Positions 34,410 to 64,000 of a stretch of DNA of 64,000 bases are shown one piece after another; position 1 is the stretch's first letter, and each line of letters begins with the position of its first letter. Below the pieces are notes generated by a model. That model was not told where the DNA came from. It saw nothing but the letters and a program-made list of their open reading frames with translations, and searched no databases. The stretch comes from Escherichia phage phita32, in the sequence record PQ758395; one strand, 5' to 3'. A program made the position numbers and the translations under genes.

Positions 34410-34466
34410 TAAGATGTGAGTCTAAAGGGGAGGCACCCTCCCCAAAAACTAAGGAAGCACTAAACG

Positions 34467-51553: not shown

Positions 51554-51575
51554 GCAGGCCCGGTGATTGTCTCCC
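51554..51575 (+). repeat. Conserved element copy 1 (GCAGGCCCGGTGATTGTCTCCC)
   Basis: 22-nt core also present inverted at 61118..61139; 13-mer GTGATTGTCTCCC also at 51697. Confidence 0.6.
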
Positions 51576-51696
51576 GGCCCCTGTTGCCCCGGCTTGTTAT
51601 TATAGTATCACGCAGGACAAAGAAAGCAAGGATTTTTTGCATAAATTTTTAGACGATAATGATAACCGTTCTCATTCTATCTAGCGCCCATCCCCA

Positions 51697-51709
51697 GTGA
51701 TTGTCTCCC
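51697..51709 (+). repeat. Conserved element copy 2 (GTGATTGTCTCCC core in a paralogous ~100-nt unit)
   Basis: Units at about 51519-51620 and 51650-51760 share GATAAT(C/G)AT..GTTCTC..GTGATTGTCTCCC..TAT..CAC.AGG. Confidence 0.5.
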
Positions 51710-52058
51710 CCGTCACCAGGGCCTGCCGTCCTTTCGATAGGTATATTGTGCCACCTGGCGGGGCCGCTGTCAACACCTTTCAAAAAAAAAAAATTATAAC
51801 CAGGTGCGCCCACTGCCAGGACCTGGCGGGGCCAACCTGGCAGGTCCGCGCTATAAAGTGAACAGCTACAGAAGAGGTACAAAAATGAAAGGTAATGCTA
51901 CTCACCTGGAAAATAGTAATTGATGATACGGAAGCTATCGCCCTGGTCGAGAAGGCTAAAACTGAAGCACCGGAACATAAAGAAGAGTACGAAAAACGGT
52001 GGTGATCTGGCAGGGCGGCGGCAGGTGGATTCTATCATAAAAATAATTTAAAATAATT

Positions 52059-52087
52059 GTTGACAACCGGGGGAGTCCTGCTATTCT
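52059..52087 (+). promoter_or_regulatory. Sigma70-like promoter (TTGACA-N16/17-TATTCT)
   Basis: AT-rich upstream region, consensus -35; precedes the gene at 52139. Confidence 0.5.
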
Positions 52088-52138
52088 TATCCTACAAGGT
52101 GAACAACACCGCACTAACTAGTAAAGAGGATAAAAATC

Positions 52139-52351
52139 ATGAACGCATACGGAATCAAAGTACGTCGCAACACTCGCCAGGTGGTAACCGATCAAGTGGT
52201 TTGCCTGGTGGATGTAACCATCAACAACGGGCAAGGCCTTTATAAATTTCGTCGCGGTCATAGTTATACCCTGCAACAGCTTAACCGTTGCGCCCTGACA
52301 AAAGGTCAGATCAACCACTGGTTTAATAAAAAAATAAATATTGACATGTAG
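52139..52351 (+). CDS. Early small protein (70 aa)
   Basis: AAAGAGGA RBS plus own promoter. Confidence 0.45.
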   Translation: MNAYGIKVRRNTRQVVTDQVVCLVDVTINNGQGLYKFRRGHSYTLQQLNRCALTKGQINHWFNKKINIDM

Positions 52352-52369
52352 TCTGAAACAAAATATACT
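52341..52369 (+). promoter_or_regulatory. Sigma70 promoter (TTGACA-N17-TATACT)
   Basis: Near-consensus; overlaps the end of the upstream ORF. Confidence 0.6.
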
Positions 52370-52401
52370 AAAAGCACAAAAGACACTAAGAGGATAAAAT
52401 C

Positions 52402-52800
52402 ATGAAAACCACAACCTTTAATTTTGATAATGCTAACTTCTCTTTTTCTGATGTTAAGAACTGCCGCCGTGATCGCGGATTCTACAAGGCCTATAATCTG
52501 GTTGGCCTTGACGATGATAATAATTTGCACGAAGTGGCGGAGATCCGGTACTATGCCGCCGCCAGTGGTAACACTAACTACTGCGTTTTTTGGATACACG
52601 ACAACAAGAACAATAAGTACGGTTATACTGGCGGCAAGGCGAGCGGTCACGGTTATGATAAAGCCAACGCTGCACTTGAAAGCGCATTAAATGCCATGGG
52701 AATCACTGCTAACGGCTGGATCTATGAAGAAGAATTTTTGGCGGCACTTGCTGCCCACCTGGGCTATAAAAAGCACATTGTAACATGCGCCCACGAATAA
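52402..52800 (+). CDS. Early protein (132 aa)
   Basis: AAGAGGA RBS plus own promoter. Confidence 0.45.
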   Translation: MKTTTFNFDNANFSFSDVKNCRRDRGFYKAYNLVGLDDDNNLHEVAEIRYYAAASGNTNYCVFWIHDNKNNKYGYTGGKASGHGYDKANAALESALNAMGITANGWIYEEEFLAALAAHLGYKKHIVTCAHE

Positions 52801-52811
52801 AAAAAAAATAT

Positions 52812-52839
52812 TTGACACGCCACAAAATTTAAGTAGACT
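52812..52839 (+). promoter_or_regulatory. Sigma70-like promoter (TTGACA-N16-TAGACT) with downstream 5' hairpin GGCGGGAAACATCCCGCC
   Basis: A-rich UP region, consensus -35, then conserved leader hairpin and GAGGAAAA RBS. Confidence 0.5.
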
Positions 52840-52883
52840 ATATACAAAGGCGGGAAACATCCCGCCAACACAGAGGAAAAGCT

Positions 52884-53279
52884 ATGAATAAGAACGTACG
52901 CCGCATCATGAACGAACTGGCAAACGATGAAAAAATTATTGACATGCATTTGGTCAACATTTGCCGCCGTTGTGTAACATACAACAACCGCGCCGCAAAA
53001 GCGCGTGAGATGAACGCAAAAGGCACCTTAAAGCCCTTTCAGGTGGTTGTAAAATCTATAACTAATGCAGCAGGCCAGGCGCATGATCACAACAACGAGA
53101 GCACTAATATTGATCCGTCTTACGTAATGAAACGGATCCGGACTTGCAAGAATAAAGAGCAGGTGTATAACGTCATAGATTGGCTTGATTCCATGGGCGA
53201 CGTGGTTTACAATAGATTTTCTGCAGCTATTGAAATTCAGTTAGACAGGTTGGACGGGAAAGTACTAAAAACTTACTGA
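52884..53279 (+). CDS. Early protein (131 aa)
   Basis: Promoter, leader hairpin and RBS all present. Confidence 0.45.
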   Translation: MNKNVRRIMNELANDEKIIDMHLVNICRRCVTYNNRAAKAREMNAKGTLKPFQVVVKSITNAAGQAHDHNNESTNIDPSYVMKRIRTCKNKEQVYNVIDWLDSMGDVVYNRFSAAIEIQLDRLDGKVLKTY

Positions 53280-53280
53280 G

Positions 53281-53326
53281 TTTATTTTTAGATGGCCTTG
53301 ACTCCAGGGCCATCAATAAAGTAAAC
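53281..53326 (+). repeat. 46-nt intergenic palindromic element, copy 1 (TTTATTTTTAGATGGCCTTGACTCCAGGGCCATCAATAAAGTAAAC)
   Basis: 7-bp stem GATGGCC/GGCCATC with TTGACT in the loop; near-identical copies at 53902 and 57619, variant at 54247. Confidence 0.65.
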
Positions 53327-53359
53327 TAATCCCAGTTAAGCGAAAAAGGAGGCTTGAAG

Positions 53360-53479
53360 ATGAGCACTACACGCCAGCACACAAAGGTAACTATTATCGT
53401 TTGCATCATTGGTTATATCCTGGCGCAAATGTTGATGGGTAGCGCCAACGGTGTCGCAAAATTTTTCTTAAACTTTTAA
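53360..53479 (+). CDS. Small hydrophobic peptide (39 aa)
   Basis: AAGGAGG RBS at 7-nt spacing; predicted single transmembrane helix; below the track cut-off. Confidence 0.3.
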   Translation: MSTTRQHTKVTIIVCIIGYILAQMLMGSANGVAKFFLNF

Positions 53480-53506
53480 TTGACAAGCTAACTTAGATCA
53501 GTATAC
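53479..53506 (+). promoter_or_regulatory. Sigma70 promoter (TTGACA-N16-TATACT) with leader hairpin
   Basis: Followed by CGGGAAAACTTCCC hairpin and AAGGAGA RBS. Confidence 0.55.
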
Positions 53507-53558
53507 TAAACACATAAACGGGAAAACTTCCCAGAACACACAAAAGGAGAAAAACACC

Positions 53559-53900
53559 ATGACTACTATGACCGCCGCAGAAAAAGCTATTCAGGTTGCA
53601 GCACTGAAAAAACAGATCGCAGACCTTGAGAACAAGATCGATAACTTTGAAATCGACGAGGACAAGTACGACGAAAACTATGATGAATGGTTAGACGAGA
53701 TCTACGGCGAAATTATGATCGGAAACATTTCTTTTCTTCCGTCGCGTATCCTCAAGGAGCTAGATCCTATCGCTTACCGCTGCGGATTTAGCGACTACAT
53801 CGACAGCCTGGATATTGAGGACGATGAAGAATACCAGGAATTACAGACAGAGTTGGAAGAAGCAAAAGAAGAGCTTGCAGAACTGGAAGAAAACGAGTAA
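53559..53900 (+). CDS. Early acidic coiled-coil protein (113 aa)
   Basis: Own promoter and RBS; strongly acidic (DE-rich) C-terminal half. Confidence 0.45.
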   Translation: MTTMTAAEKAIQVAALKKQIADLENKIDNFEIDEDKYDENYDEWLDEIYGEIMIGNISFLPSRILKELDPIAYRCGFSDYIDSLDIEDDEEYQELQTELEEAKEELAELEENE

Positions 53901-53901
53901 A

Positions 53902-53947
53902 TTTATTTTTAGATGGCCTTGACGCCAGGGCCATCGATAAAGTAAAC
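53902..53947 (+). repeat. 46-nt intergenic palindromic element, copy 2
   Basis: Two substitutions relative to copy 1 (TTGACG loop; CGATAAAG). Confidence 0.65.
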
Positions 53948-53989
53948 TTTATACTGTTAACACTGAACTAATACAGAGGAGTTAAAACC

Positions 53990-54235
53990 ATGGCAGCACT
54001 AATCACCAAATACTATGCACCGACCAACACCAAAAGCGCACGCATCTTGGTAAAAGGATTCGGACGTAAAAAGGTTTACACCTGGGATTATGCCTTAGAC
54101 ATGGAAGACAACTACACCAACGCGATGACAGATTTTATTAATGAACTAAATAAACAGATCTTAACCAATTATAAGGTGACCGACATCGCCTATGTTGGGG
54201 AAGGTGGGATCTGTTTTGTCGGTATTGTCAAATAA
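53990..54235 (+). CDS. Early small protein (81 aa)
   Basis: GAGGAG RBS. Confidence 0.45.
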   Translation: MAALITKYYAPTNTKSARILVKGFGRKKVYTWDYALDMEDNYTNAMTDFINELNKQILTNYKVTDIAYVGEGGICFVGIVK

Positions 54236-54246
54236 GCTGTTTTTCG

Positions 54247-54278
54247 GTGGCCCTGGTGGCAGGGCCATCTATAAAGAT
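54247..54278 (+). repeat. Variant of the palindromic intergenic element (TGGCCCTGGTGGCAGGGCCA + TATAAAG)
   Basis: Same GGCC..GGCC stem type and downstream ATAAAG, but no TTGAC in the loop. Confidence 0.45.
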
Positions 54279-54309
54279 AGTTTATTAACACCATGAAAGG
54301 AGAAAGTAC

Positions 54310-54663
54310 ATGATCAGTGGGGCTAGTTTTATTATTGGCGCTATTGCTACGGCTTTAATTGTAAACAAGATCCAGGATAAAAAGGAAAGAGGAAGTACCG
54401 ACCTTGCAGAATATCCATTTTGGACATTCAATGATAACGAAGATTATATTGTAAAGTATAAAAATAAAGAAGGTGACCAAGTAACACCGCGACCGATCCC
54501 GGCTTACAAGATGCAGGAAACACTATACCGCTTGGAGGCGGGAGGCGCAAAAATTGTGGACTTTTGGGGATACGATCACACAGATCAGGAAGTTATAAAG
54601 CGCCGTATCCGGGCTATTCAGGCCAATATTGAAGTTAGCAAGGGGGGAATATATGAAGATTAA
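54310..54663 (+). CDS. Early membrane-anchored protein (117 aa)
   Basis: AAGGAGA RBS; N-terminal hydrophobic helix. Confidence 0.45.
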   Translation: MISGASFIIGAIATALIVNKIQDKKERGSTDLAEYPFWTFNDNEDYIVKYKNKEGDQVTPRPIPAYKMQETLYRLEAGGAKIVDFWGYDHTDQEVIKRRIRAIQANIEVSKGGIYED

Positions 54664-54850
54664 TTTTGAGAAGATTGTAAAGCGATCTCATGATTCCGAA
54701 GAGCTGCCGGAACGCCGCCAGCGTAACAATAAACTGAATAAGCCAAAAAGATTTGGGAAGATCTGGCGGAATCATTATGATCGTAAATTGCCGGGCCTCC
54801 TTTTGGAACGTGAACGACAGGCGGAACGATACCGCCACAAAGGCAAATAA
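54653..54850 (+). CDS. Early small basic protein (about 65 aa)
   Basis: ATG at 54653 after GGGGGGA RBS; highly basic (R/K-rich); terminator follows. Confidence 0.35.
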   Translation: MKINFEKIVKRSHDSEELPERRQRNNKLNKPKRFGKIWRNHYDRKLPGLLLERERQAERYRHKGK

Positions 54851-54858
54851 CAACCAAC

Positions 54859-54884
54859 GCCCCGCTATTGTGCGGGGCTTTTTA
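54859..54884 (+). terminator. Intrinsic terminator (GCCCCGC-TATTGT-GCGGGGC + T-run)
   Basis: Perfect 7-bp GC stem then TTTTTATTT. Confidence 0.65.
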
Positions 54885-55009
54885 TTTCTATCCCGCCGAT
54901 AGCGCCCCTGGTTGGCCCCACAACGCCCTAAAGGCCCCCTACCTATGCAATCTCCTTTCTTAACCTGAAAACATCGTCAAAGGCCGTTTTAAAGCGTTAA
55001 AAATATTGT

Positions 55010-55037
55010 TGACATCTAAAATATTCTAGATATACTA
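55010..55037 (+). promoter_or_regulatory. Sigma70 promoter (TTGACA-N16-TATACT)
   Basis: Near-consensus boxes. Confidence 0.55.
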
Positions 55038-55071
55038 ATCACATCAAAGCGAGAAGTAAGGAGTAAACGCC

Positions 55072-55341
55072 ATGCGTAAATTGAAAAATTTTGATAAAGT
55101 CGATGTTGTCCTAAATAATTTTTACTACTGCAATAATAAAGCCGTTTGGTGGCGCGATAATTCCACCGATAAGGTTAAGGCGCGCTTTCTCCAAGGGTAC
55201 TGGCAAGGCCGTCCAGTGATTAAAATCCTGGGGCAATTGGTAGCGTTTAAAAATTGCCGCCGTGTTGACGACGTTGAAGAGATTTTAAACATTTTGCGCC
55301 ACAATAATTTAAAAATAGTGTTGACAAGTAAATATCGATAA
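55072..55341 (+). CDS. Early small protein (89 aa)
   Basis: AAGGAG RBS plus own promoter. Confidence 0.45.
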   Translation: MRKLKNFDKVDVVLNNFYYCNNKAVWWRDNSTDKVKARFLQGYWQGRPVIKILGQLVAFKNCRRVDDVEEILNILRHNNLKIVLTSKYR

Positions 55342-55348
55342 GTATACT
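55321..55348 (+). promoter_or_regulatory. Sigma70 promoter (TTGACA-N16-TATACT) with leader hairpin GGCGGGAAAACTTCCCGCC
   Basis: Promoter overlaps the end of the upstream ORF; conserved leader hairpin at about 55359-55377. Confidence 0.6.
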
Positions 55349-55405
55349 TAAACACACAGGCGGGAAAACTTCCCGCCACTAACAAAGAAAATAGGAGAAA
55401 ATATC

Positions 55406-56029
55406 ATGACCACCGTTAACATTACTACAGGTTACAATTTATCTTTCGACGTGCTGACCGACGAACAAAAAGAAAAAGCCGTTGAAATGGTCCGCGAAAG
55501 AGAAGAACACAGCGGGGATAACTTTTTTGCAGAAAGTGTAATTGAATACTATAAAGAGTATGTTTTTCCAGAGTACGGGCTTGAAGATACAGAGGTACAT
55601 TGGTCCGGCTTTTGGTGCCAGGGTGACGGCGCGTCAATCAGTGCTGAAAACGTGGACTTAGAAAAATTCTTGCGTAAAGTCAAGTCTCTGACTAAATTCC
55701 GCTCAATTCGCCACTTGTTCGGCACAATGCATGACGGGGAATTATCAGCCAGTGTTGAACGTGACACATACAGCCGCTATAGTCACGAAAACACTGTAAA
55801 CGGATACATCGATACTACTTGGCTAGACCTAACCGCCAAACAAGAAAACAAAGTGGAAGATTTGGAAGAGCTGATCACCGAGACGGTACGGGAGTTATCC
55901 CGCAAGGTTTACGTAGACTTGGAAGCGGCCTATTTGGAGCAATTCACATCTGAAAACTTGATCGGCCTTATCGAGGCCAATGATTGGCGGTTTGATGTCG
56001 ATGAATATGGTGAGATGACTTTTTCATAA
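55406..56029 (+). CDS. Early protein (207 aa)
   Basis: AGGAGAAAA RBS; acidic protein. Confidence 0.45.
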   Translation: MTTVNITTGYNLSFDVLTDEQKEKAVEMVREREEHSGDNFFAESVIEYYKEYVFPEYGLEDTEVHWSGFWCQGDGASISAENVDLEKFLRKVKSLTKFRSIRHLFGTMHDGELSASVERDTYSRYSHENTVNGYIDTTWLDLTAKQENKVEDLEELITETVRELSRKVYVDLEAAYLEQFTSENLIGLIEANDWRFDVDEYGEMTFS

Positions 56030-56037
56030 ATAAAGTG

Positions 56038-56065
56038 TTGCAATAACCTAAAAACCTGTTATATT
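56038..56065 (+). promoter_or_regulatory. Sigma70-like promoter (TTGCAA-N16-TATATT) with leader hairpin GGGGCAAGACGTTTGCCCC
   Basis: Promoter, leader hairpin and AAGAGGAAAA RBS. Confidence 0.5.
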
Positions 56066-56118
56066 AAAACTCAAGGGGGCAAGACGTTTGCCCCACACAA
56101 AACAAAGAGGAAAACATC

Positions 56119-56499
56119 ATGAAAAACACTACTAAAGCTATTGACACCGTTATGTTTAACCTGGTTACCTTTCGCGAGGATATGAAAGATCTTCCACGTG
56201 AAACAGTGTGCGACCATATCGAAAACTATCGCAAACTAATCAAAGAGTTGCCTTTAAAACGTGACCAGTATGCGGCTAACGCTATGCTTAACGCTATGAT
56301 CAAAAAGATGATCCAGTGTGATTTAACTCTGGCCTATGATTATGCAGGTGGTCGTTTTGCAGTATACAATCGGCCCGTGCCTGGTATGAGCACCACCGAA
56401 GAATTGCACGCGCTCAATCTAAAACAAGACGTGTGGGATAGTATGCCCCGCGTGGTGGTGTGGGCAGAAAGCGGAAAGATTTACGGCGATAATTTTTAA
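56119..56499 (+). CDS. Early protein (126 aa)
   Basis: Own promoter and RBS; terminator follows. Confidence 0.45.
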   Translation: MKNTTKAIDTVMFNLVTFREDMKDLPRETVCDHIENYRKLIKELPLKRDQYAANAMLNAMIKKMIQCDLTLAYDYAGGRFAVYNRPVPGMSTTEELHALNLKQDVWDSMPRVVVWAESGKIYGDNF

Positions 56500-56508
56500 T
56501 CAGGTAAC

Positions 56509-56536
56509 AGGCGGCGGCATATTTGCCGCCTTATTG
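56509..56536 (+). terminator. Intrinsic terminator (GGCGGC-ATATTT-GCCGCC + T-rich)
   Basis: GC stem followed by TTATTGTT. Confidence 0.5.
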
Positions 56537-56566
56537 TTAAACAGAACTGTAAAAGAGGTACATAGA

Positions 56567-56926
56567 ATGGAATTTATTATTCTGACTGTATTAGTTGCCT
56601 TGTTCAACGCCTGGATCGCTGGCAAGGTAGGCAGATCCGCTTTCTTATGGTTTATTATATCTATTTTCCTGGGAGTGGTTGCAACTATCATATTGGTTAT
56701 CCTTGCAATTGTTGACAAAGGTAATAATAGAAAGGGTAAAGTATTTTCCGACCTGTATGACGCACAAACGTTCGTCAACGCCTATTATGGTGATCTCCCG
56801 GTATCCCTACGCTGCAGCCTGGCACAACAGGTTTTTGATGAAGCTAAAACCAGAGATCAAGCCCATGAGATATGTTTAACTGAGGCGGATCGCCTATTTG
56901 AGAGGAATAGAAAATATGTGGGCTAA
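56567..56926 (+). CDS. Early membrane protein (about 119 aa)
   Basis: ATG after AAAGAGG RBS; two predicted transmembrane helices. Confidence 0.4.
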   Translation: MEFIILTVLVALFNAWIAGKVGRSAFLWFIISIFLGVVATIILVILAIVDKGNNRKGKVFSDLYDAQTFVNAYYGDLPVSLRCSLAQQVFDEAKTRDQAHEICLTEADRLFERNRKYVG

Positions 56927-57161
56927 CCGTTTAAATAACTCCGCGCTAATTAATCCCTTTAGTGAAGATTTGAAGCCAGCCGCCTGGCGTGATGGATTCA
57001 ATACCGAAGGATTTATTTTCAGGCCTGATCTTGAGGAATTTTATAACAATGGATCGAACAACGACAGAGATAATTTTTCTTGTGATGTGCGTAGCGATGG
57101 TACTCCTGGGGGCCATTGCAAACCACATCACTACTACCAGGGGGAAAGGGGGAGACGATGA
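56916..57161 (+). CDS. Early small protein (about 81 aa)
   Basis: ATG at 56916 after GAGAGGAA RBS; 11-nt overlap with the upstream gene. Confidence 0.35.
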   Translation: MWANRLNNSALINPFSEDLKPAAWRDGFNTEGFIFRPDLEEFYNNGSNNDRDNFSCDVRSDGTPGGHCKPHHYYQGERGRR

Positions 57162-57277
57162 CAACCAAGGATAAGCCCCGCACCGATAAGGCGCGCCGGG
57201 TTATGGTATGGCTTGAGATCATCGCCCTTGAAATATTGCTAGGCGTAGGGATGTACTTTATCGCTGTAAGTAACTAA
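57158..57277 (+). CDS. Small membrane peptide (39 aa)
   Basis: ATGA start/stop overlap with the upstream gene; GGGGGAGA RBS; hydrophobic C-terminal half; terminator follows. Confidence 0.3.
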   Translation: MTTKDKPRTDKARRVMVWLEIIALEILLGVGMYFIAVSN

Positions 57278-57282
57278 GAACG

Positions 57283-57310
57283 GCCCCCGATCATGGGGGC
57301 TTATCTTTTT
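57283..57310 (+). terminator. Intrinsic terminator (GCCCCCGATCATGGGGGC + T-run)
   Basis: Stem-loop followed by TTATCTTTTT. Confidence 0.6.
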
Positions 57311-57332
57311 AAAAAATTTCCCTTCCAGGGTG

Positions 57333-57360
57333 TTGCAATCCGGTCCGCAATATGGATAAT
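57333..57360 (+). promoter_or_regulatory. Sigma70-like promoter (TTGCAA-N16-GATAAT) with leader hairpin GGGGAGCTAATCCCC
   Basis: Shares CAATATGGATAATA with the promoter at 58149. Confidence 0.5.
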
Positions 57361-57416
57361 AACAATCAACGGGGAGCTAATCCCCACCAACACAAAAACC
57401 AGAAAGGAGAAACAAA

Positions 57417-57617
57417 ATGAGCAACAATATCCGCGTTATTAACTTCAAAAAAGAAGAAAAAATTGCCGTGCTGATTGACGGTCAAGAAATCTTCAAGGGC
57501 TATTATGAAGATCATCAAACGGCGATTAGTATCACTCGCGTGATCGGTTACCATAATTTCTACCCCCAAGGCGCTGAGGCAGCGGTTAAACGAATCAAAG
57601 AGATTGTAGGCCTGTAA
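57417..57617 (+). CDS. Early small protein (66 aa)
   Basis: AAAGGAGAAA RBS. Confidence 0.45.
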   Translation: MSNNIRVINFKKEEKIAVLIDGQEIFKGYYEDHQTAISITRVIGYHNFYPQGAEAAVKRIKEIVGL

Positions 57618-57618
57618 A

Positions 57619-57664
57619 TTTATTTTTAGATGGCCTTGACTCCAGGGCCATCAATAAAGTAAAT
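57619..57664 (+). repeat. 46-nt intergenic palindromic element, copy 3
   Basis: Hairpin and TTGACT loop identical to copy 1. Confidence 0.65.
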
Positions 57665-57707
57665 TTTAATCGTGATAAAATAATCAGTGCAAAAAGGAGT
57701 AATGATC

Positions 57708-58007
57708 ATGTTCATACCCGCCAATAATCTTTATTTCTTTGATGGTCAAATCGTAGACGGTGTGGAGGTGGAGATCACCGGGTGCCCTGGTGGTCAGGTT
57801 ATGACTTTCCGGAATAATGCCTTTGATGATTCTCATATCGTTATGAGAATGGAAGTTAGTAAGCTAGATGATAAGAAAACATTGATTGACTATTCCGTCA
57901 AAGATCATCCAGACTACCACATGATCTATGGTGATTTGTGCATTGTTGACCGTGACAAGGTGGGCGGCATTGTGATCGCTATTGTGAACGATGTTTTCTC
58001 TGTATAG
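57708..58007 (+). CDS. Early protein (about 99 aa)
   Basis: ATG at 57708 after AAGGAG RBS (the track GTG at 57687 contains the RBS). Confidence 0.4.
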   Translation: MFIPANNLYFFDGQIVDGVEVEITGCPGGQVMTFRNNAFDDSHIVMRMEVSKLDDKKTLIDYSVKDHPDYHMIYGDLCIVDRDKVGGIVIAIVNDVFSV

Positions 58008-58065
58008 TTCCGGTAAATGATGCAAAATAAGGCCCCTAGCAGGGCCTGCAGCGATATAATCACAT

Positions 58066-58099
58066 AAAGGCCATGCAACCGCATGGCCTTTATTATTTT
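58066..58099 (+). terminator. Intrinsic terminator (AAAGGCCATGC-AACC-GCATGGCCTTT + T-run)
   Basis: 11-bp stem followed by ATTATTTT; preceded by a second hairpin AGGCCCCTAGCAGGGCCT at about 58030. Confidence 0.6.
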
Positions 58100-58148
58100 G
58101 GCGTTACAGCGGCCCCCAAGGTGCTTAAAAAATTTTTTAAAGAAGTAC

Positions 58149-58176
58149 TTGCATCAAGCCCTACAATATGGATAAT
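58149..58176 (+). promoter_or_regulatory. Sigma70-like promoter (TTGCAT-N16-GATAAT) with leader hairpin GGGGG-GCGG-CCCCC
   Basis: Paralogous to the promoter at 57333. Confidence 0.5.
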
Positions 58177-58232
58177 AGGACGTGTCGGGGGGCGGCCCCC
58201 AATCATTAACCGGATAGATAGGAGTTAAAATC

Positions 58233-58517
58233 ATGGCTATTGTTACCGTTGGCGATGTAGTAGAAATGGAAGCAAAATACTTAAAAGCGGGTATGCATAT
58301 CCTACGGAATGATCAAGAGTTACTATTAACGATGGTCGACTATAATCCCGGCCAGGATTATCCAAGCATCGACTACTTTTTTGAGTATGTTGATGAAGAG
58401 TTGAAAGAGGATGAGGCCTATTGCGGTGAGTTCTGCAACTTCTTTTGTCCTGATGAGGTTGTAAAGGTTATTTATCAACCTGGCGTAGCTTTCCCGCTGC
58501 ACGCTATCAATAAATAA
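58233..58517 (+). CDS. Early protein (94 aa)
   Basis: AGGAG RBS; followed by a GGGGCC-GAAAA-GGCCCC hairpin. Confidence 0.45.
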   Translation: MAIVTVGDVVEMEAKYLKAGMHILRNDQELLLTMVDYNPGQDYPSIDYFFEYVDEELKEDEAYCGEFCNFFCPDEVVKVIYQPGVAFPLHAINK

Positions 58518-58582
58518 ACCTGGCGGGGCCGAAAAGGCCCCTACAGCATAAAATCATAAAAAATAAAGAGAGGCAAATCATC

Positions 58583-58816
58583 ATGATGGAACAAATTAAA
58601 CGCGCCGAGGCTATTAATGGCAATGTGATCTATTTTGTTAGCAATAACGAAAAAGGCGTACCATATGCAGCGGTAATAGTGCAGCCTGACGGCGATTATT
58701 GGTTTACTGTATACGGATCTTATTCTTTCGGGCGTCCGGTGCATGATAGAATTTTAAAAGTAGCTAATCCAACCGGGAAGAATATCACAGCAGAAAAATT
58801 TTTTGAAAATAGTTGA
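58583..58816 (+). CDS. Early small protein (77 aa)
   Basis: AAAGAGAGG RBS. Confidence 0.45.
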   Translation: MMEQIKRAEAINGNVIYFVSNNEKGVPYAAVIVQPDGDYWFTVYGSYSFGRPVHDRILKVANPTGKNITAEKFFENS

Positions 58817-58843
58817 CATGACCGTATAAGACTGTAGTATATA
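58813..58843 (+). promoter_or_regulatory. Sigma70-like promoter (TTGACA ... TATATA) with leader hairpin GGGGGCAAGCCCC
   Basis: -35 overlaps the upstream stop codon; followed by leader hairpin and AAAGAGGA RBS. Confidence 0.5.
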
Positions 58844-58889
58844 AATCAAAGGGGGCAAGCCCCACCAACCACAAAGAGGATAAAAAATC

Positions 58890-59069
58890 ATGGCTATTAT
58901 TGCAAAGACCGAGATTTTAGGTTTAGATTCTATTCTCCTGGCATACGAGGAAGCTATAGAAATGTATGTGGTTTCCTATGGTGAGTATATCCGTGAATAT
59001 GAATCTATTGATCTAGCTTTTGAATGTTATATTCACCAGGTAAATAAGGCATATGATGATTATCGTTAA
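58890..59069 (+). CDS. Early small protein (59 aa)
   Basis: Just below the track cut-off; has promoter, leader hairpin and RBS. Confidence 0.4.
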   Translation: MAIIAKTEILGLDSILLAYEEAIEMYVVSYGEYIREYESIDLAFECYIHQVNKAYDDYR

Positions 59070-59075
59070 AATAGT

Positions 59076-59103
59076 TTGACAACAGTCAACAATCTGGTAA
59101 AGT
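59076..59103 (+). promoter_or_regulatory. Sigma70-like promoter (TTGACA-N16-TAAAGT) with leader hairpin GCGGGAATACTTCCCGC
   Basis: Promoter followed by leader hairpin. Confidence 0.45.
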
Positions 59104-59151
59104 GTACTACATAGCGCGGGAATACTTCCCGCCATTAATGAGGGTAATTTA

Positions 59152-59298
59152 ATGAAAACTTTCAACGCAACGGCCTCGACAATTGGTTATATTATTACAG
59201 TACAAGCCGTGGATCTGGTAGCAGCAGCAAACAAGATTAAAAAGATGATTCCGCCAGGCAGTGAATTTTCCGTTTGGGAAGTAAAAAATAAATCTTGA
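59152..59298 (+). CDS. Early small protein (48 aa)
   Basis: GAGGG RBS; below the track cut-off. Confidence 0.35.
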   Translation: MKTFNATASTIGYIITVQAVDLVAAANKIKKMIPPGSEFSVWEVKNKS

Positions 59299-59322
59299 CG
59301 ATAATTTGTTATCTGATAGAAT
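59295..59322 (+). promoter_or_regulatory. Sigma70-like promoter (TTGACG-N16-TAGAAT)
   Basis: Overlaps the upstream stop; followed by a GC-rich leader hairpin and GAGGAAAA RBS. Confidence 0.5.
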
Positions 59323-59382
59323 GTATTTCGTAGGGCGGGGAAATAAGGCAACGCCCCACATCAACCGGAAGAGGAAAACAAG

Positions 59383-59619
59383 ATGAGTATTGCGACAATA
59401 TTAACCGCTGTTAAAACCGCTGAACGTTCCGGCCTGCAAGTTGAGATTATAGATCAACCAGGTGGCGATCTCCTTGTCCAAGTTTACCCGCCGAAAGTAG
59501 GGGATGATTATTATTGGTGTTATTCTGATACGTTCGAACAAGTAGACACGAAAGCAATAACCGCCTTTATTTTAAAAGCCGTTGAAGAAAATAACTTGCA
59601 CAATAACGTCAATCAATAA
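59383..59619 (+). CDS. Early small protein (78 aa)
   Basis: GAGGAAAA RBS. Confidence 0.45.
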   Translation: MSIATILTAVKTAERSGLQVEIIDQPGGDLLVQVYPPKVGDDYYWCYSDTFEQVDTKAITAFILKAVEENNLHNNVNQ

Positions 59620-59673
59620 ACCATAAGCGAAGTGGTAACGCCCCATTAAACGCAATAGAAAGAGGATAACTAC

Positions 59674-59778
59674 ATGAAACAGAAATTAATTGATGCGGTG
59701 ATCCTGGTTATTGCCCTAGGTATTGGCCTGATTGCAACCATGGCTAATATGATCTTGTCTTCCAACGGTATCGGATAA
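59674..59778 (+). CDS. Small hydrophobic peptide (34 aa)
   Basis: AAAGAGGATAA RBS; predicted single transmembrane helix; leader paralogous to that of the gene at 60095. Confidence 0.35.
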   Translation: MKQKLIDAVILVIALGIGLIATMANMILSSNGIG

Positions 59779-59787
59779 GGTGGGCAA

Positions 59788-60003
59788 ATGATCACCAACA
59801 AAACAGGCAAAACAGAATTTTTACGCAACTTGCAGATCGGCAAGCCTGAGATCTGGTATTGCACTAAAACACCACGTGACGAAATGAAAGACTTCACCGC
59901 CACGCTGCAACGGGTGAAGATATCTATCACACAGAAAAAGGCCTTACTAGTGGTGGAAGGTGAGATCCCCCAAACCGTTGTTATAGTTGAGCGTACAGCA
60001 TAG
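59788..60003 (+). CDS. Early small protein (71 aa)
   Basis: AAGGTGGG RBS. Confidence 0.4.
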   Translation: MITNKTGKTEFLRNLQIGKPEIWYCTKTPRDEMKDFTATLQRVKISITQKKALLVVEGEIPQTVVIVERTA

Positions 60004-60094
60004 TTTAATTTATACAGATACCTGAAAATTAACCAACAAAGCATAAACAGGCGGTTACCGCCGCCTTAAACGTAGCAGAAAGAGGATAGACACA

Positions 60095-60379
60095 ATGAAA
60101 AAGATGATCGCAGTGGTTTCCCTGGTTGTTGGACTTAATGCGCCTGTAATGGCTAAAGAGCTGGCAAAAGAGGTTGATCTAACGGATATCCATGCCGTCA
60201 ATCAAATCGGGGTTACTTATCGCTTATGCCTTGCCGCTAAAACTTTTAATGACGGCACAACAGAGTACTACGGATTCGAGGGTATCCGGTGCGGTGAGCT
60301 TGCTCGCGACCTTAAGGAAGATCCAGACCTGGAAGATCTGCCCATCACCGTAAACGGTAAAGCTTACGTAGACCGTTAA
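60095..60379 (+). CDS. Small secreted/periplasmic protein (94 aa, signal peptide)
   Basis: N-terminal MKKMIAVVSLVVGLNAPVMA signal-peptide-like sequence; AAAGAGGATAG RBS. Confidence 0.45.
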   Translation: MKKMIAVVSLVVGLNAPVMAKELAKEVDLTDIHAVNQIGVTYRLCLAAKTFNDGTTEYYGFEGIRCGELARDLKEDPDLEDLPITVNGKAYVDR

Positions 60380-60381
60380 CC

Positions 60382-60522
60382 ATGAGAAAGATAATCATCA
60401 CCTTGGGGATTGTGGTAGCAATATTGGCGCTCTTTCCCCTTATGGTTAGATATGTGCTGATACGTGCTGTTCTAGTGGTCAGCGATCTGGTGTTATATAT
60501 ATATATTAACTTACTGTTTTAG
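60382..60522 (+). CDS. Small hydrophobic peptide (46 aa)
   Basis: ATG 2 nt after the upstream stop; very hydrophobic; no clear RBS. Confidence 0.2.
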   Translation: MRKIIITLGIVVAILALFPLMVRYVLIRAVLVVSDLVLYIYINLLF

Positions 60523-60718
60523 GTGCGATAATGACCACTGATGAAGCTGTAAAAGTGTTGGCGGTATTGAGATAACATAATCAGACAAAAGTTATAAACG
60601 ATCCTGATTATGTTGACTCAAAGCGTGAAGATGAGACATTGACCGCAATAGGGATTATTCAAGAATTGCTAAAGCGCATGACAGAGAAAAACCGACCTGA
60701 CTACATAGGGGGTAAAAT

Positions 60719-61030
60719 ATGATCGCTATTACGCCAACCGTTTTAGATTGGTATCGGCAACGCATAGCGCTTCCGCTGGCTATCTTCAAAGATGCGGAAG
60801 CAAAACAACGCCGGATCTCAATACATGAGATCATCAACCTTAACGCTGGAGGCACACCATACCGTCCAGGACCTGGCCGTGAGATGGACAATACGTTAGC
60901 GATCCTGAAGATACGCCGTAAACGGTCCTCCCTTACGCTGGACTCATTACACACAATGCAGTCTCCGTTCCAGGTGACCGGGAAACGGATCGCCAGGTCC
61001 TGGACAAAGGCCAATGATCGGACCGTATAA
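60719..61030 (+). CDS. Hypothetical basic protein (103 aa)
   Basis: GGGGG RBS; preferred over the overlapping antisense 179-aa ORF because it is co-oriented with the array. Confidence 0.3.
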   Translation: MIAITPTVLDWYRQRIALPLAIFKDAEAKQRRISIHEIINLNAGGTPYRPGPGREMDNTLAILKIRRKRSSLTLDSLHTMQSPFQVTGKRIARSWTKANDRTV

Positions 61031-61060
61031 ATAAAAAGTGTTTTGGTACTGATTTTGGGG

Positions 61061-61089
61061 TTGACTTGTTCGGCCCCTTTTGCTATTCT
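61061..61089 (+). promoter_or_regulatory. Sigma70-like promoter (TTGACT-N17-TATTCT), -35 within a GGGG...CCCC hairpin
   Basis: Reads through the inverted copy of the 22-nt element. Confidence 0.4.
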
Positions 61090-61117
61090 TATTAAACGGG
61101 CGGCACTTGGGAACAGG

Positions 61118-61139
61118 GGGAGACAATCACCGGGCCTGC
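61118..61139 (-). repeat. Conserved element copy 3, inverted (GGGAGACAATCACCGGGCCTGC on the + strand)
   Basis: Exact reverse complement of 51554..51575. Confidence 0.6.
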
Positions 61140-61165
61140 CTGTCATATAAGAACTATAAAAACCT

Positions 61166-61194
61166 TTGACATCTGCCATGGGGTGAGGTAACAT
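61166..61194 (+). promoter_or_regulatory. Sigma70 promoter (TTGACA-N17-TAACAT)
   Basis: Followed by a leader hairpin and GGAGAGAGGAAAA RBS. Confidence 0.5.
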
Positions 61195-61249
61195 TTATCT
61201 TGAAGGGGGCAAAAGTGCCCACACAACAACCAGGAGAGAGGAAAACACT

Positions 61250-61522
61250 ATGTCAAGCTGGATTAATCAAGAAGTCGAATCACGTTTTAATGCTATTTGG
61301 GATCTCATCGAAAAAGAGGACGGAACATCAAGCCCCTACCTCAACAATTTGGAATTCCATTTTGTGGAAGCGATGAACGCAGAACATGATCACGAAGGTG
61401 GCGCGGATGAGTTCGCTAAAGGTTATGGCTTTAACAATGCCAACGAAATGATCGAGGCGGTAGTACTCCAGGCTGAGGAAGATTATCAATTAAAAACTCT
61501 TGAATTCTGCCGCCGCAAGTAA
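61250..61522 (+). CDS. Early acidic protein (90 aa)
   Basis: Promoter and RBS present. Confidence 0.45.
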   Translation: MSSWINQEVESRFNAIWDLIEKEDGTSSPYLNNLEFHFVEAMNAEHDHEGGADEFAKGYGFNNANEMIEAVVLQAEEDYQLKTLEFCRRK

Positions 61523-61582
61523 TAAGATAATGACACGGGCCGAAAGGCCCACTAATCAAGATCACATAGAGAGGAAAACATC

Positions 61583-61846
61583 ATGAAACGCATCGATCAG
61601 CTTAAAGTAGTTCAACATATGGCTTACCGTATCCTTGAAGTTCAAAAAGGCAGCAAAAAAGAAGTTTGTGAAAAAGCCTATAAAATTTTCACCCGCAAAA
61701 AGGACGACTGGATGTTACGCCAGACTAAAAAGGACGATATCTTGGGATACTTGGAAGAAGAGATCCGCCTTGCCGAGCAAGAAGAGATCCGCCGTGATGA
61801 AGCAGAATATCAGGCAAGTTGGGAATACTGGATGAATAACAAGTAA
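61583..61846 (+). CDS. Early protein (87 aa)
   Basis: GAGAGGAAAA RBS; followed by a GGGC-GAAA-GCCC hairpin. Confidence 0.45.
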   Translation: MKRIDQLKVVQHMAYRILEVQKGSKKEVCEKAYKIFTRKKDDWMLRQTKKDDILGYLEEEIRLAEQEEIRRDEAEYQASWEYWMNNK

Positions 61847-61907
61847 TACAGCAAGCCATGCAACCAGGGCGAAAGCCCCTTGATTCTGAAAAATAATGCT
61901 ATCCTTA

Positions 61908-61936
61908 TTGACAAGGATCGGCAGTTTTGCTATATT
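61908..61936 (+). promoter_or_regulatory. Sigma70 promoter (TTGACA-N17-TATATT)
   Basis: Consensus -35, good -10. Confidence 0.55.
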
Positions 61937-61983
61937 CTTTTTCAGAAGGAAGTTGTAAGAAAATTATCTAAGAGGTAAACACC

Positions 61984-62403
61984 ATGAATATTAAATCTAA
62001 CAATCCCGCATACAGCTTTGATAACGCTTTTTGTCACGGCCCAGCCGCAAAAGGTTTTGAAATTGATGGTAAACTGGTTATTGTGAATGTTGACGGGGAA
62101 GAGGTTGCAGTATATCCGGTGGCAGACGTTAAAAGCCGTTTACAATGCCGCATTGATGTTACCGCATATCAGCTTGATCCGGTCCGCGTAGTTGCCCTGG
62201 TCCTGGAGGAAGAAATCAAAGCGATGCACCATAGTAACAGGTTTATTGGTGACGCGCAGGATAATATGAAGGTGTGCCGTTATAAAGTTAATGAAGTGCT
62301 TAAAGAATATGGATTTAAGGATCTGATGATCAAACGTGATGAAAAATTTCGTTATCGTAACGACCTGGCAAATCGAATCTATGAAATATACGAATCATTA
62401 TAA
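61984..62403 (+). CDS. Early protein (139 aa)
   Basis: AAGAGG RBS; terminator follows. Confidence 0.45.
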   Translation: MNIKSNNPAYSFDNAFCHGPAAKGFEIDGKLVIVNVDGEEVAVYPVADVKSRLQCRIDVTAYQLDPVRVVALVLEEEIKAMHHSNRFIGDAQDNMKVCRYKVNEVLKEYGFKDLMIKRDEKFRYRNDLANRIYEIYESL

Positions 62404-62421
62404 TTTTTTAACTGAATTATC

Positions 62422-62448
62422 AAGGGGCTTAAAGCCCCTTTCTTTTTG
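62422..62448 (+). terminator. Intrinsic terminator (AAGGGGCTT-AAA-GCCCCTT + T-run)
   Basis: Ends the + strand early-gene array. Confidence 0.65.
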
Positions 62449-62449
62449 T

Positions 62450-64000
62450 CTCCTCTTTTCCTACCACAAACGGCCAAGCCTGGCAAGTGGAATAATTGAC
62501 TAGCCAGCAATTACCAACACTGTACAAACATACATGTAAAATAGCTATTGCATAATATTTCATTGTGTGGTAGCAGGGCCATTTTTACCCGCTTTTCCTT
62601 CCAAAACTGCATGTAATTCCACTATTGCACAAAATTTAACCTGATGCACAATATCTCTTTCTTGTCAACAACTAAAAATCTTTATAAGTCATACACTTAC
62701 ATAACCACAAAAGCGTGTTCTACGTGAAAAATCGGGTATAACTATAGCCACTAAATTCCAGAATTCACGTAGCGTCACCATTCTATAGCCCGCTAAGTAT
62801 TTATTCCGACCATAGAATAACGGAATAGTCAATACCTGCATAAAATAATTATTCGTGTAAACTGCATAACATAAATCAGCTAGGGTGTCAACATTTTTCG
62901 TAAACAGCTTGAAATTATCACGGTGAGTTATCATAAGCAGATAAATCTTTAGTCGTCTAATGTTTACTGTACGTTACTATACTAACTGAAATCATTAGAT
63001 GACTAAGAGAAAGATAAGAAATCATTAACAATGCAATTGTTTTATTCGTAACAATAAGGCAACTATGCAAACGAATGGCATGGCGCGACGGAGTCGCGAC
63101 ATAATATAAAAGCAGTAACCATCACCCCCGTGATAGTTTGTCTGCAAACTATTAATCAGATCATAGTTGCCTTGTATTTAGTTAATCATGACATAAACTC
63201 AGGCATAGCCTTCGTCTCGAGGATGTTAACAAGCAAGGCAACTATAGATCTGCTAATAGTTGCCCTGCTTTTATATTATGTCATAGAAACACCCGAAGGG
63301 GTGACCAAAGGTCACCTGGCATAGCCAGTGAAAGATTATTAACTTGCTAATTGTCAACTTGTTGGCTGTTAGCTTGTCAATTGTAAACTAGTTAATTGTT
63401 ATCATGCAAACGAATGGCATGGCTTATCATCTATGCGTGAACTATCCAGGCGTAAACAGTCTATGTGGGAACAATCTATACGTGAACAGTGAAACATGAA
63501 ATAATAACAGTCGTTATTGTGGCGTATTGTGCTGCAGTATGTCATATTGTGTCAGACAAGTTTTTCTCCTCTTTGTCAAGTGCTGCATGAAAAATTTACA
63601 ATCTTGTATGGTAGCATTTTGCGGCCCTGTTTACATTCAGGAATGTATGTATAATCCTTGTTGTGTGGGCGTTTAGACGTCTGGACGGTCAGAAGTCTGC
63701 AGGTTAATATCTAATCTATTGGCTGCTAACTATATCCCCCACAAATAATAAGAAATATAATTGTTATATGTGTAAACCGTAACTCATGTTATCAATCCCT
63801 GTATGTATCGCCAGTGGTGCGCATAATGGGTATTATGTTAAATTGCCCGTAATGATAACTATTCTCACAATGATAGGTATTCTCATTCACCCCACAAGAT
63901 AGGTTGCAAATGTTGTGCCACTGTGTGAACGGCCTCACCTATTAATTTGCCTCACTGCCTCGATATTTGAGAATTATTATAAGAATGAAAAGTATTCCCA
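62450..64000. repeat. AT-rich non-coding region with dispersed repeats and palindromes
   Basis: GCAAACGAATGGCATGGC twice (about 63066 and 63407); GGCAACTAT / ATAGTTGCC inverted pairs (63058-63270); TTGTCAA-containing direct repeats (63351-63400); palindromes CGCGAC-GGA-GTCGCG (about 63085) and GGTGACC-AAA-GGTCACC (about 63300); no convincing ORF with an RBS. Confidence 0.5.

Follow-up and report, generated by a model that had tools for sequence, protein, structure and literature searches.

Promoter, stem-loop and leader cassettes in a small-gene array of the rV5-like Escherichia phage phita32

The sequence of Escherichia phage phita32 (record PQ758395) contains, between positions 52,000 and 62,450 of the 64,000 nucleotides (nt) analysed here and called the window below, a dense array of small genes, many of them preceded by a repeated module of promoter, GC-rich stem-loop, leader and Shine-Dalgarno (SD) sequence. 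About half of the small genes are shown to carry a predicted self-contained expression unit of this kind. Sequences of two further lineages of myoviruses show the same design, as does that of the T4-like phage RB49, where such motifs have been named PeSLs (promoter-early stem-loops). With moderate confidence we interpret the array as a hyperplastic accessory region of an rV5-like phage built from PeSL-type expression cassettes, in which the hairpin acts as a generic 5' structure and the repeats act as recombination linkers.

Genes and modules of the array

The array runs from the promoter of its first gene (g1, 52060) to a closing terminator at 62422-62450, so the limits of 52,000 and 62,450 drawn earlier from the letters of the window (the sequence-only reading) were right. 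It comprises 29 intact plus-strand open reading frames (ORFs; g1 to g29, 52139-62403) of 34-207 amino acids (aa), and one pseudogene; that reading had counted roughly 30 small ORFs. All 29 start with ATG behind an SD sequence, the consensus being AAAGAGGAAAACATCATG. Every one of the 29 products matches a PHROG family of unknown function, with E-values from 1e-22 to 1e-95, and we therefore regard the ORFs as real, recurrent phage genes. A Pfam family was found for g8 only (54653-54850, with an 11-nt overlap with the end of g7), namely Phage_1_1, the T7 early protein gp1.1 (E 1e-10); the earlier remark that none of the products carries a recognised motif is thus supported, with g8 as the one product that has a Pfam family. 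No relative in the PDB came up in phmmer searches with six of the larger ORFs, among which were the four largest.

A recognisable sigma70-type promoter adjoins 15 of the 29 genes. TTGACA or TTGACG is present in 10 of these 15, and an AT-rich tract with repeat families such as AATAATTTAAAAATAGTGTTGACAA lies upstream of the -35. That nearly every ORF has its own promoter, as had been proposed, is therefore not the case. Six genes (g8, g13, g14, g23, g25 and g26) overlap the gene before them or directly adjoin it, and the intergenic gaps, read and folded one by one, fall into four classes. Class A has promoter and hairpin (12 gaps: g1, where the hairpin is weak, g3, g5, g10, g11, g15, g17, g19, g20, g21, g27 and g28), class A' a good promoter without a hairpin (g2, g9 and g29), class B a 55-nt repeat hairpin (before g4, g6, g7 and g16) and class C a promoter-less hairpin or a canonical terminator (g12, g18, g22 and g24).

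The order in class A is promoter (mostly TTGACA, a 16-nt spacer and TAnnnT), GC stem-loop, A/C-rich leader, SD and ATG. The hairpin begins 9-10 nt after the -10 in most modules of the window (8 nt for g28, 11-12 nt for g5), and a distance of about 10 nt is kept in some 30 modules from two subfamilies although the linker itself differs (atatacaaa, taaacacaca, aaaactcaag, gtatcacata). A short A-rich flank (ATCAA) often precedes the stem. Between hairpin and SD the composition is A 57%, C 22%, G 11% and T 11% against a regional background of 33/20/23/25, so that the leader, previously described as purine-rich, is in fact rich in A and C, and only the SD is purine-rich.

Under a stringent rule (a perfect stem of 5 or more base pairs (bp), of which 4 or more are G:C, beginning 8-13 nt past the -10) a hairpin follows 8 of the 15 gene-proximal promoters, compared with 0.14 expected from dinucleotide shuffles of each promoter's own downstream 50 nt (Poisson-binomial P ~3e-15); relaxed rules give 11-12 of the 15. 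Applied to the whole 64-kb window, the stringent rule picks out 7 distinct modules within the array, a single one outside it and none on the minus strand. The sole module outside the array (34387-34450; TTGACT-17-TAAGAT, 11 nt, GGGGAGGCACCCTCCCC) lies within the replication-gene region. Promoter-like sites are also in excess between 50 and 64 kb (54 against 34.6 +/- 5.3 expected), as are terminator-like sites (34 against 12.7 +/- 4.3), and the component parts (AT-rich tract with TTGACA, hairpin, leader/SD and class B element) also emerge independently from repeat detection. The 11-12 promoter-adjoining hairpins have folding free energies (dG) of -4 to -15 kcal/mol and folding z-scores of -0.3 to -5.6; it is the number of hairpins and their fixed position, not the individual z-scores, that make up the signal of the module. 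Some of these z-scores are weak, and promoter-like hexamers are common in AT-rich DNA, as would be expected if the pattern were chance or a compositional artefact. We give this explanation practically no weight, as it is refuted by the P value, by the restriction to one strand and one region, and by the recurrence of the design in other phage genera.

Forty-two hairpins were compared by a loop-anchored pair table, which we used since MAFFT alignments of 31 and 13 class A hairpins misaligned the 3' arms, the stem and loop lengths being different. There are 39 distinct sequences among the 42, and inner pairs switch between G:C, C:G and A:T. In all 42 a purine-rich 5' arm is followed by a pyrimidine-rich 3' arm (G:C 189 versus C:G 48, A:T 51 versus T:A 0, with G.U wobbles on the plus strand), and 21 class A hairpins fold better on the plus strand, 13 on the minus strand. 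Orthologue alignments of 13 modules from 8 relatives, which are too similar for a covariation test, have their changes mainly in the loops. It thus appears to be the structure and not the sequence that is conserved in the hairpins. The strict polarity of the arms points to a strand-specific role, as RNA or single-stranded DNA, rather than to a symmetric cruciform.

These comparisons also bear on the suggestion in the sequence-only reading that the hairpin is an operator or specific processing site. A single phage factor, a translational repressor or an endoribonuclease, would then co-regulate the array. The architecture is common to many genes and ATCAA often stands before the stem, and phages do encode global regulators of early mRNA, such as RegA and RegB of T4. 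A common sequence-specific regulator is nevertheless improbable, because the stems and loops are so diverse and the loops vary even between orthologues; further, the Pfam and PHROG searches of the 29 ORFs turned up no domain for RNA binding or nuclease activity.

The class B element is a 55-nt repeat in four copies (53276-53330, 53897-53951, 54231-54285 and 57614-57668), each beginning directly after a stop codon (of g3, g5, g6 and g15). It folds into duplexes of 9 bp and 10 bp with an internal loop and a tetraloop (-21 to -26 kcal/mol, z -5.4 to -6.8). Owing to G.U pairs the fold of the first copy is stronger on the plus strand (-23.6 kcal/mol, z -6.8) than on the minus strand (-14.9 kcal/mol). 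The third copy keeps both stems through changed pairs and has lost the TTGAC found in the loop of the other copies, from which it seems that the hairpin, and not the promoter-like hexamers, is the conserved feature. Among 20 distinct orthologous copies the variable positions are those of the tetraloop and the internal loop. The T7 early region has intercistronic RNase III sites, which class B resembles in shape (9 bp and 10 bp with an internal loop, sites of the T7 type being about 20 bp of irregular duplex with an internal loop) and in its position between cistrons. Class B may serve as an intercistronic site of the RNase III type, or it may stabilise the 3' end.

Six canonical terminators, each a hairpin with a T-run, divide the array (54859, 56509, 57282, 58064, 61057 and 62422). 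No U-tract follows the class A, B and C hairpins, which are followed by A/C-rich sequence instead and so fall outside the definition of an intrinsic terminator. Minus-strand terminator calls on class A hairpins were rejected, as there are no minus-strand genes there and the T-runs are the reverse complement of the A-rich plus-strand sequence preceding each hairpin.

Features of the array, all on the plus strand. Promoters are given as -35, spacer length and -10, followed where noted by the distance from the -10 to the hairpin.
52060-52138: g1 module; TTGACA-16-TATTCT, weak 4-bp hairpin 52098-52110 (z -1.3), SD; g1 is 52139-52351 (70 aa)
52341-52401: g2 promoter; TTGACA-17-TATACT, without hairpin; g2 is 52402-52800 (132 aa)
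52812-52883: g3 module, class A; TTGACA-16-TAGACT, 9 nt, hairpin GGCGGGAAACATCCCGCC 52849-52866 (dG -14.3, z -4.8), leader, SD; g3 is 52884-53279
53280-53326: class B copy 1, directly after the g3 stop; TTGAC in loop; precedes g4 (53360-53479)
53480-53558: g5 module, class A; TTGACA-16-TATACT, hairpin 53519-53534 (core GGGAA/TTCCC, z -1.8); g5 is 53559-53900
53901-53947: class B copy 2, after the g5 stop and before g6 (53990-54235)
54236-54281: class B copy 3, 65% identical, dG -26.4; after the g6 stop and before g7 and g8 (54310-54850)
54859-54888: canonical intrinsic terminator after g8; annotated as terminator in phage Murica
55009-55071: g9 promoter; TTGACA-16-TATACT, without hairpin; site of the insertion in phage MiataMamis
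55321-55405: g10 module, class A; TTGACA-16-TATACT, 10 nt, hairpin GGCGGGAAAACTTCCCGCC 55359-55377 (dG -14.6, z -5.6); g10 is 55406-56029 (207 aa)
56038-56118: g11 module, class A; TTGCAA-16-TATATT, 10 nt, hairpin 56076-56094 (z -3.0); g11 is 56119-56499
56509-56540: canonical terminator after g11
56567-57277: g12 to g14, following the terminator without a recognisable promoter
57282-57310: canonical terminator after g14
57333-57416: g15 module, class A; TTGCAA-16-GATAAT, 10 nt, hairpin GGGGAGCTAATCCCC 57371-57385 (z -3.1); g15 is 57417-57617
57618-57664: class B copy 4, after the g15 stop and before g16 (57708-58007)
58064-58100: canonical terminator after g16
58149-58232: g17 module, class A; TTGCAT-16-GATAAT, 10 nt, hairpin GGGGGGCGGCCCCC 58187-58200; g17 is 58233-58517
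58525-58541: promoter-less hairpin GGGGCCGAAAAGGCCCC (z -3.2) between g17 and g18 (58583-58816)
58813-58889: g19 module, class A; TTGACA-16-TAGTAT, 10 nt, hairpin 58851-58863; g19 is 58890-59069
59076-59151: g20 module, class A, of the type of phage ESCO13 ('gtaYYacata'); TTGACA-16-TAAAGT, hairpin 59114-59133; left edge of a variable slot; g20 is 59152-59298
59295-59382: g21 module, class A; TTGACG-16-TAGAAT, 10 nt, chimeric hairpin 59333-59357 (z -2.4); g21 is 59383-59619
59620-59673: decayed hairpin, then the leader/SD of g22 (59674-59778); the variable slot ends here on the right (junction near 59660)
60049-60066: promoter-less hairpin before g24 (60095-60379)
60531-60722: pseudogene; a 63-codon gene intact in Murica, here with an in-frame TAA at codon 15
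61057-61145: terminator-like hairpin with a -35; TTGACT-17-TATTCT, then a conserved GC-rich element with the core GGGAGACAATCACCGG (61118-61133)
61166-61249: g27 module, class A; TTGACA-17-TAACAT, 10 nt, hairpin 61205-61220; g27 is 61250-61522
61500-61582: g28 module; TTGAAT-17-TAAGAT, 8 nt, hairpin GGGCCGAAAGGCCC 61537-61550 (z -3.6), leader 61551-61577
61908-61983: g29 promoter; TTGACA-17-TATATT, without hairpin; g29 is 61984-62403 (139 aa)
62422-62450: canonical terminator closing the array

Cassette exchange between related phages

Megablast of the array against the GenBank phages gave 256 matching records, nearly all of them rV5-like E. coli myoviruses (Vequintavirus), and judged by its sequence the window itself is from such a phage. 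The best matches are 91-93% identical, the region being on the reverse strand in most records, and the genes beneath the match are all annotated as hypothetical in the relatives. At least 80% of the array is covered by only 55 of the 256 related records, and the 22 kb 5' of it, which hold the replication module (DNA polymerase, primase/helicase, rIIA/B), are 95-97% identical to relatives. On account of this low coverage and lower identity we regard the array as the more variable part of the genome.

The array was compared with eight vequintaviruses, among them rV5, V18, HeinrichReichert, Murica, 10C2, naam, MiataMamis and ECP32. The stretch from 59113/59119 to 59660 is a slot with three states: g20 and g21 occupy it in the window and in MiataMamis, an unrelated gene of 81 aa takes their place in Murica, 10C2 and naam, and in rV5, V18 and HeinrichReichert it is empty (27-59 bp). 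The slot is bounded on the left within the promoter/hairpin and on the right within the g22 leader/SD. An extra gene in rV5 and ECP32, ORF166, has a leader direct repeat of about 25 nt (CTAATCARAAC...CACAnAAAGAG) on both sides, which corresponds to 61551-61577 of the g28 module in the window. MiataMamis has a 566-bp insertion with three ORFs at the g9 promoter, the junctions being two TTGACA (-35) boxes, and ECP32 is without g18-g22, with the junction in the SD/ATG repeat. The gene g26 is present or absent among the relatives, with one edge at the -35-containing hairpin 61057-61077. In a tblastn matrix 11 of the 29 genes are variably present among nine close relatives.

ESCO13 (Phapecoctavirus, Stephanstirmvirinae), a phage of another subfamily, shares only patches of the array region. 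Eight cassettes are common to the window and ESCO13 and stand in a different order; g11, g18, g19, g20, g21, g22-23, g24-25 and g29 correspond to ESCO13 positions 6.7, 14.4, 7.1, 12.0, 13.4, 12.3, 13.6 and 15.2 kb, respectively. The ESCO13 match ends 27-36 nt upstream of start codons, which is at the hairpins. The promoter and hairpin 5' arm of g21 (TTGACGATAATTTGTTATCTGATAGAATGTATTTCGTAGGGCGGGG) match an ESCO13 unit that drives a different gene, and the 3' arm (GCAACGCCCCACATCA...), leader and ORF match another ESCO13 unit whose hairpin has no promoter. This match to two sources places the crossover inside the hairpin, and by it g21 acquired a promoter. The g20 protein is 100% and that of g21 87% identical to the ESCO13 homologues, other shared genes being 59-92% identical, and both g20 and g21 are absent from 8 of the 9 vequintaviruses compared. 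The complete identity of g20 together with its absence from most of the vequintaviruses indicates a recent transfer of the g20/g21 cassettes between phage subfamilies. Taken at the level of sequence, these comparisons show that the points at which related phages have gained, lost, replaced or reordered cassettes coincide with the modules.

The junctions inside hairpins raise the question of whether the hairpins act at the DNA level only, as recombination hot spots (extruded cruciforms or single-strand hairpins at which recombination and replication enzymes of the phage would cut or pause) or as selfish repeats spreading along with the cassettes, and have no role in RNA. One RB49 mini-circle crossover was mapped to the loop (PMC2839356), and the position of the hairpin differs between phage groups. 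Junctions are however found equally often in the -35 or the leader/SD. A symmetric cruciform would also not lead one to expect that the purine arm comes first in 42 of 42 hairpins or that A:T outnumbers T:A by 51 to 0, and the G.U pairs favour the plus-strand fold in class B (-23.6 versus -14.9) as in class A (21 versus 13). We consider a purely DNA-level role quite unlikely.

A further possibility, to which we also give little credence, is that the hairpin-leader units make up a cassette-exchange system across Vequintavirinae, Stephanstirmvirinae and Straboviridae, all of them groups of large enterobacterial myoviruses unrelated to one another, with the strand-polar hairpins as preferred crossovers, maybe by way of excised mini-circles, and with promoter swapping. 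Phages of different families that infect the same cell could then trade early genes ready for expression; such a system would be integron-like without an integrase. Integron gene cassettes are bounded by attC sites. The array is similar in that small ORFs lie between imperfect, strand-polar, hairpin-forming repeats at which cassettes exchange, and different in that no integrase or dedicated recombinase is seen here and the cassettes have their own promoters; homologous recombination is the simplest explanation. In the reading that we favour, the promoter, hairpin and leader/SD segments (20-60 nt), being repeated, would serve as homology patches for the phage recombination machinery. Whole promoter-ORF or hairpin-ORF cassettes could then come in, drop out, be exchanged or acquire another promoter while the neighbouring genes stay intact.

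Likeness to PeSLs and role of the hairpin

A PeSL is a strong sigma70-like promoter with an AT-rich upstream tract and an adjoining stem-loop, followed by the SD and ATG of an ORFan (PMC2839356). The stem-loop has the form G(N)-loop-C(N) (PMC4122927) and sits in 'various positions' (PMC2839356). PeSLs have been described in the T4-type phages RB49/phi1, PST/T4 and nt-1/KVP40 (Arbiol et al. 2010, PMC2839356; Comeau et al. 2014, PMC4122927); they cluster in hyperplastic regions and were proposed as mediators of modular shuffling (PMC2839356, PMC4122927). Our literature search found no paper on motifs of this kind in phages that are not T4-like. In the rV5 genome paper 33 promoters and 20 terminators are listed, and hairpins are unmentioned.

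The modules of the window share with PeSLs the AT-rich tract, the near-consensus sigma70 promoter, the G(N)-loop-C(N) stem-loop, the A/C-rich leader, and the SD and start codon at the 3' end of the motif. In both, the motif is 70-100 nt long, is repeated between genes and stands next to small ORFans in a variable region. In both, too, it marks the limits of what has been inserted, deleted or replaced between close relatives, and in one instance a crossover falls within the hairpin. RB49 motifs that we read directly, e.g. AAAGTTGTTGACAGGGGATCACCGATCCCCTATAAT-ACACACATACCGAAACGAA-AGGAGAATCAAAATG, share the layout and even the TGTTGACA context with the window. They differ in that the RB49 hairpin is usually in the promoter spacer or overlaps the -10 (at least one stands 9 nt after a -10), while those of the window are mainly about 10 nt downstream of the -10 and thus in their own transcript; a -35 within a hairpin occurs in the window only at 61057-61077 and in the class B elements. 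Further, the described carriers are T4-like, and here the motif is found in a Vequintavirus and also in Stephanstirmvirinae and a Certrevirus. It should be noted that promoter activity, terminator activity and mini-circles were demonstrated by experiment for RB49 (PMC2839356) and that the promoters of the window are predicted from sequence. The array largely fits the picture of PeSL-type cassettes outside T4-like phages, with a hairpin that would be transcribed from its own promoter.

Of the 34 intergenic gaps in the equivalent array of ESCO13, at least 20 carry the module, which is more regular there than in the window. Its form is TTGACA-N16-TAAnaT-GTATYACRTA-GGGCGGsAA-loop-TTsCCGCyC-leader-SD, and in about 20 modules the hairpin begins 10-11 nt past the -10. 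Pectobacterium phage DU_PP_IV (Certrevirus) has the same design in both layouts, with hairpins after the -10 and upstream of it. In RB49 a distant homologue of g27, RB49p266 (36% identity over 73 aa), stands behind a PeSL-type promoter. A scan of IMG/VR for the ESCO13-type junction TGTATCACATAGGGCGG gave 7 contigs only, the longest two being 142 and 150 kb.

According to the original PeSL proposal the stem-loops are attenuators or terminators that insulate the cassettes from read-through, in which case it would be incidental that they stand just after the promoter. In a reporter, the RB49 PeSL211/210 stem-loop lowered expression to an extent similar to that seen with a strong terminator (PMC2839356). 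Many hairpins of RB49 and DU_PP_IV lie upstream of the -10, where they can act only on upstream transcripts, and promoter-less hairpins right after stop codons would suit the same purpose. For the array of the window we nevertheless hold this to be unlikely, although it deserves to be taken seriously. A/C-rich sequence and not a U-tract follows the class A hairpins, the array has its six separate canonical T-run terminators, a terminator at +3 to +25 would abort the transcripts of its own promoter as well, and attenuation does not need a constant distance of 10 nt from the -10.

We find the position more in line with a generic 5' stem-loop, which is the best fit because it accounts for the position, the conservation of structure only, the polarity, the G/U-poor leader and the strong SD. 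The host RNA polymerase would fire the array promoters right after infection, and for this reason the genes are presumably early. Transcription would initiate about 7 nt after the -10, and as the stem begins about 10 nt after it, the stem would lie 2-4 nt from the predicted 5' end. The many sigma70-type promoters and the shared leader/SD architecture of the sequence-only reading are thus supported, with the GC stem-loop of the predicted transcripts at about +3/+4. Both RppH and RNase E depend on a single-stranded 5' end, and a hairpin at that end makes an mRNA more stable (review PMC3997798). The stem-loop would accordingly be a sequence-independent structure that hinders attack by RppH and by 5'-end-dependent RNase E; it would also sequester its pyrimidine-rich 3' arm from pairing with the SD, and the G/U-poor leader would keep the ribosome site open. 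Transcripts of T7 gene 10 (phi10) also begin with a stem-loop. The T7 phi10 transcript and the ompA and papA leaders (PMC3997798) are alike the window in their short GC stem near the predicted 5' end, unstructured leader and strong SD; they differ in that the starts in the window are only predicted and that its hairpins are also found in polycistronic spacers without a promoter.

Several points weigh against this reading. Start sites, timing and promoter use are predictions, and our literature search found no transcriptome of rV5, a Vequintavirus or a Phapecoctavirus. Promoter-less hairpins stand directly after stop codons (before g18 and g24 in the window; at 12006, 13362 and 13630 in ESCO13), and therefore the hairpin is not exclusively a 5'-terminal element; likewise the RB49 hairpin, usually in the spacer, is outside its own transcript, so that 5' protection is not common to all PeSLs. 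Three good promoters (g2, g9 and g29) have no hairpin, several hairpins are weak (z > -2; -0.3 to -1.8) and the one before g22 is decayed. The earlier reading that many transcripts would begin with a GC stem-loop a few nt after the -10 is borne out, with a fixed position, at 8 of 15 promoters under the stringent and 11-12 of 15 under the relaxed rules. The orthologues, about 90% identical, are too close for many compensatory changes. That the spacing is constant could also reflect descent of the modules from one common ancestor. As to recombination, intergenic junctions are also expected from purifying selection against insertions and deletions that break genes; the short repeated homologies at the junctions are more specific evidence than the intergenic position.

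Surroundings of the array and significance

The array is flanked by a non-coding repeat region of about 1 kb (51.0-52.0 kb) on one side and by a non-coding stretch past 62.45 kb on the other. The former is without a convincing gene and has three repeats of 47-57 nt (51219-51404, 'GATCTGTTTTTCGTTTTC') and short AT-rich motifs; these look like iterons, and the region may be an origin or a regulatory region. It parts the array from other small genes at 48.7-51.2 kb, whose promoters are without hairpins, e.g. a perfect TTGACA-16-TATAAT at 49541. The stretch at 62450-64000 is AT-rich (38% GC) and likewise without a convincing gene, with 15- and 30-nt tandem repeats at 63335-63490, and is probably the 'non-coding' box on the genome map of the rV5 paper. 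As the GenBank records of several relatives begin within 1-2 kb, the genome terminus may be near.

The 16-nt, nearly invariant core GGGAGACAATCACCGG occurs at 61118-61133 (plus), 51694-51709 (minus) and 51560-51575 (minus), so that copies inverted relative to each other lie near both ends of the array. Each copy is embedded in about 45 nt of GC-rich sequence, a short way downstream of a sigma70-like promoter. All nine vequintaviruses examined carry three copies per genome, and the parts of the ESCO13 and DU_PP_IV sequences that were retrieved carry one each. RNAalifold gave no shared RNA structure for the conserved element, which leaves the idea of a small RNA unsupported. A tRNA search of the 64-kb window found none, and an Rfam 15 scan of 49-64 kb at a permissive threshold gave two sub-threshold chance matches only, with no family reaching its gathering score.

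Small-gene arrays with individual strong promoters are known from the SPO1 host-takeover module, the T4 hyperplastic regions and the lambdoid 'morons', and for SPO1 the host-takeover function was shown genetically. The array is like these in its dense small genes of unknown function, host-type promoters, strong SD and location in a variable part of the genome; they are not defined by a shared hairpin linker. Morons are discussed in PMC2839356 as well. The prior description of PeSLs, the modules as exchange junctions, the class B element and the promoter-less hairpins were all missed in the sequence-only reading.

Many functions in host takeover and anti-defence are being traced to the small early genes of large lytic coliphages. 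Portable promoter-hairpin-SD cassettes would explain why this region diverges between near-identical therapeutic and typing phages (rV5, Murica, BASEL Bas48-59), and for annotation the module would be a practical marker of true start codons and transcription units in such genomes. A hairpin at a fixed position at the predicted 5' end would further be a simple design rule for stable, insulated early expression. Specialists who know PeSLs will not be surprised by the array; the finding is of use all the same, and g21 offers a neat case of promoter capture by a crossover within a hairpin. The chimeric g21 hairpin and the 100% identical g20 point to recent cassette exchange between phage subfamilies, and the concept of the PeSL would extend beyond T4-like phages.

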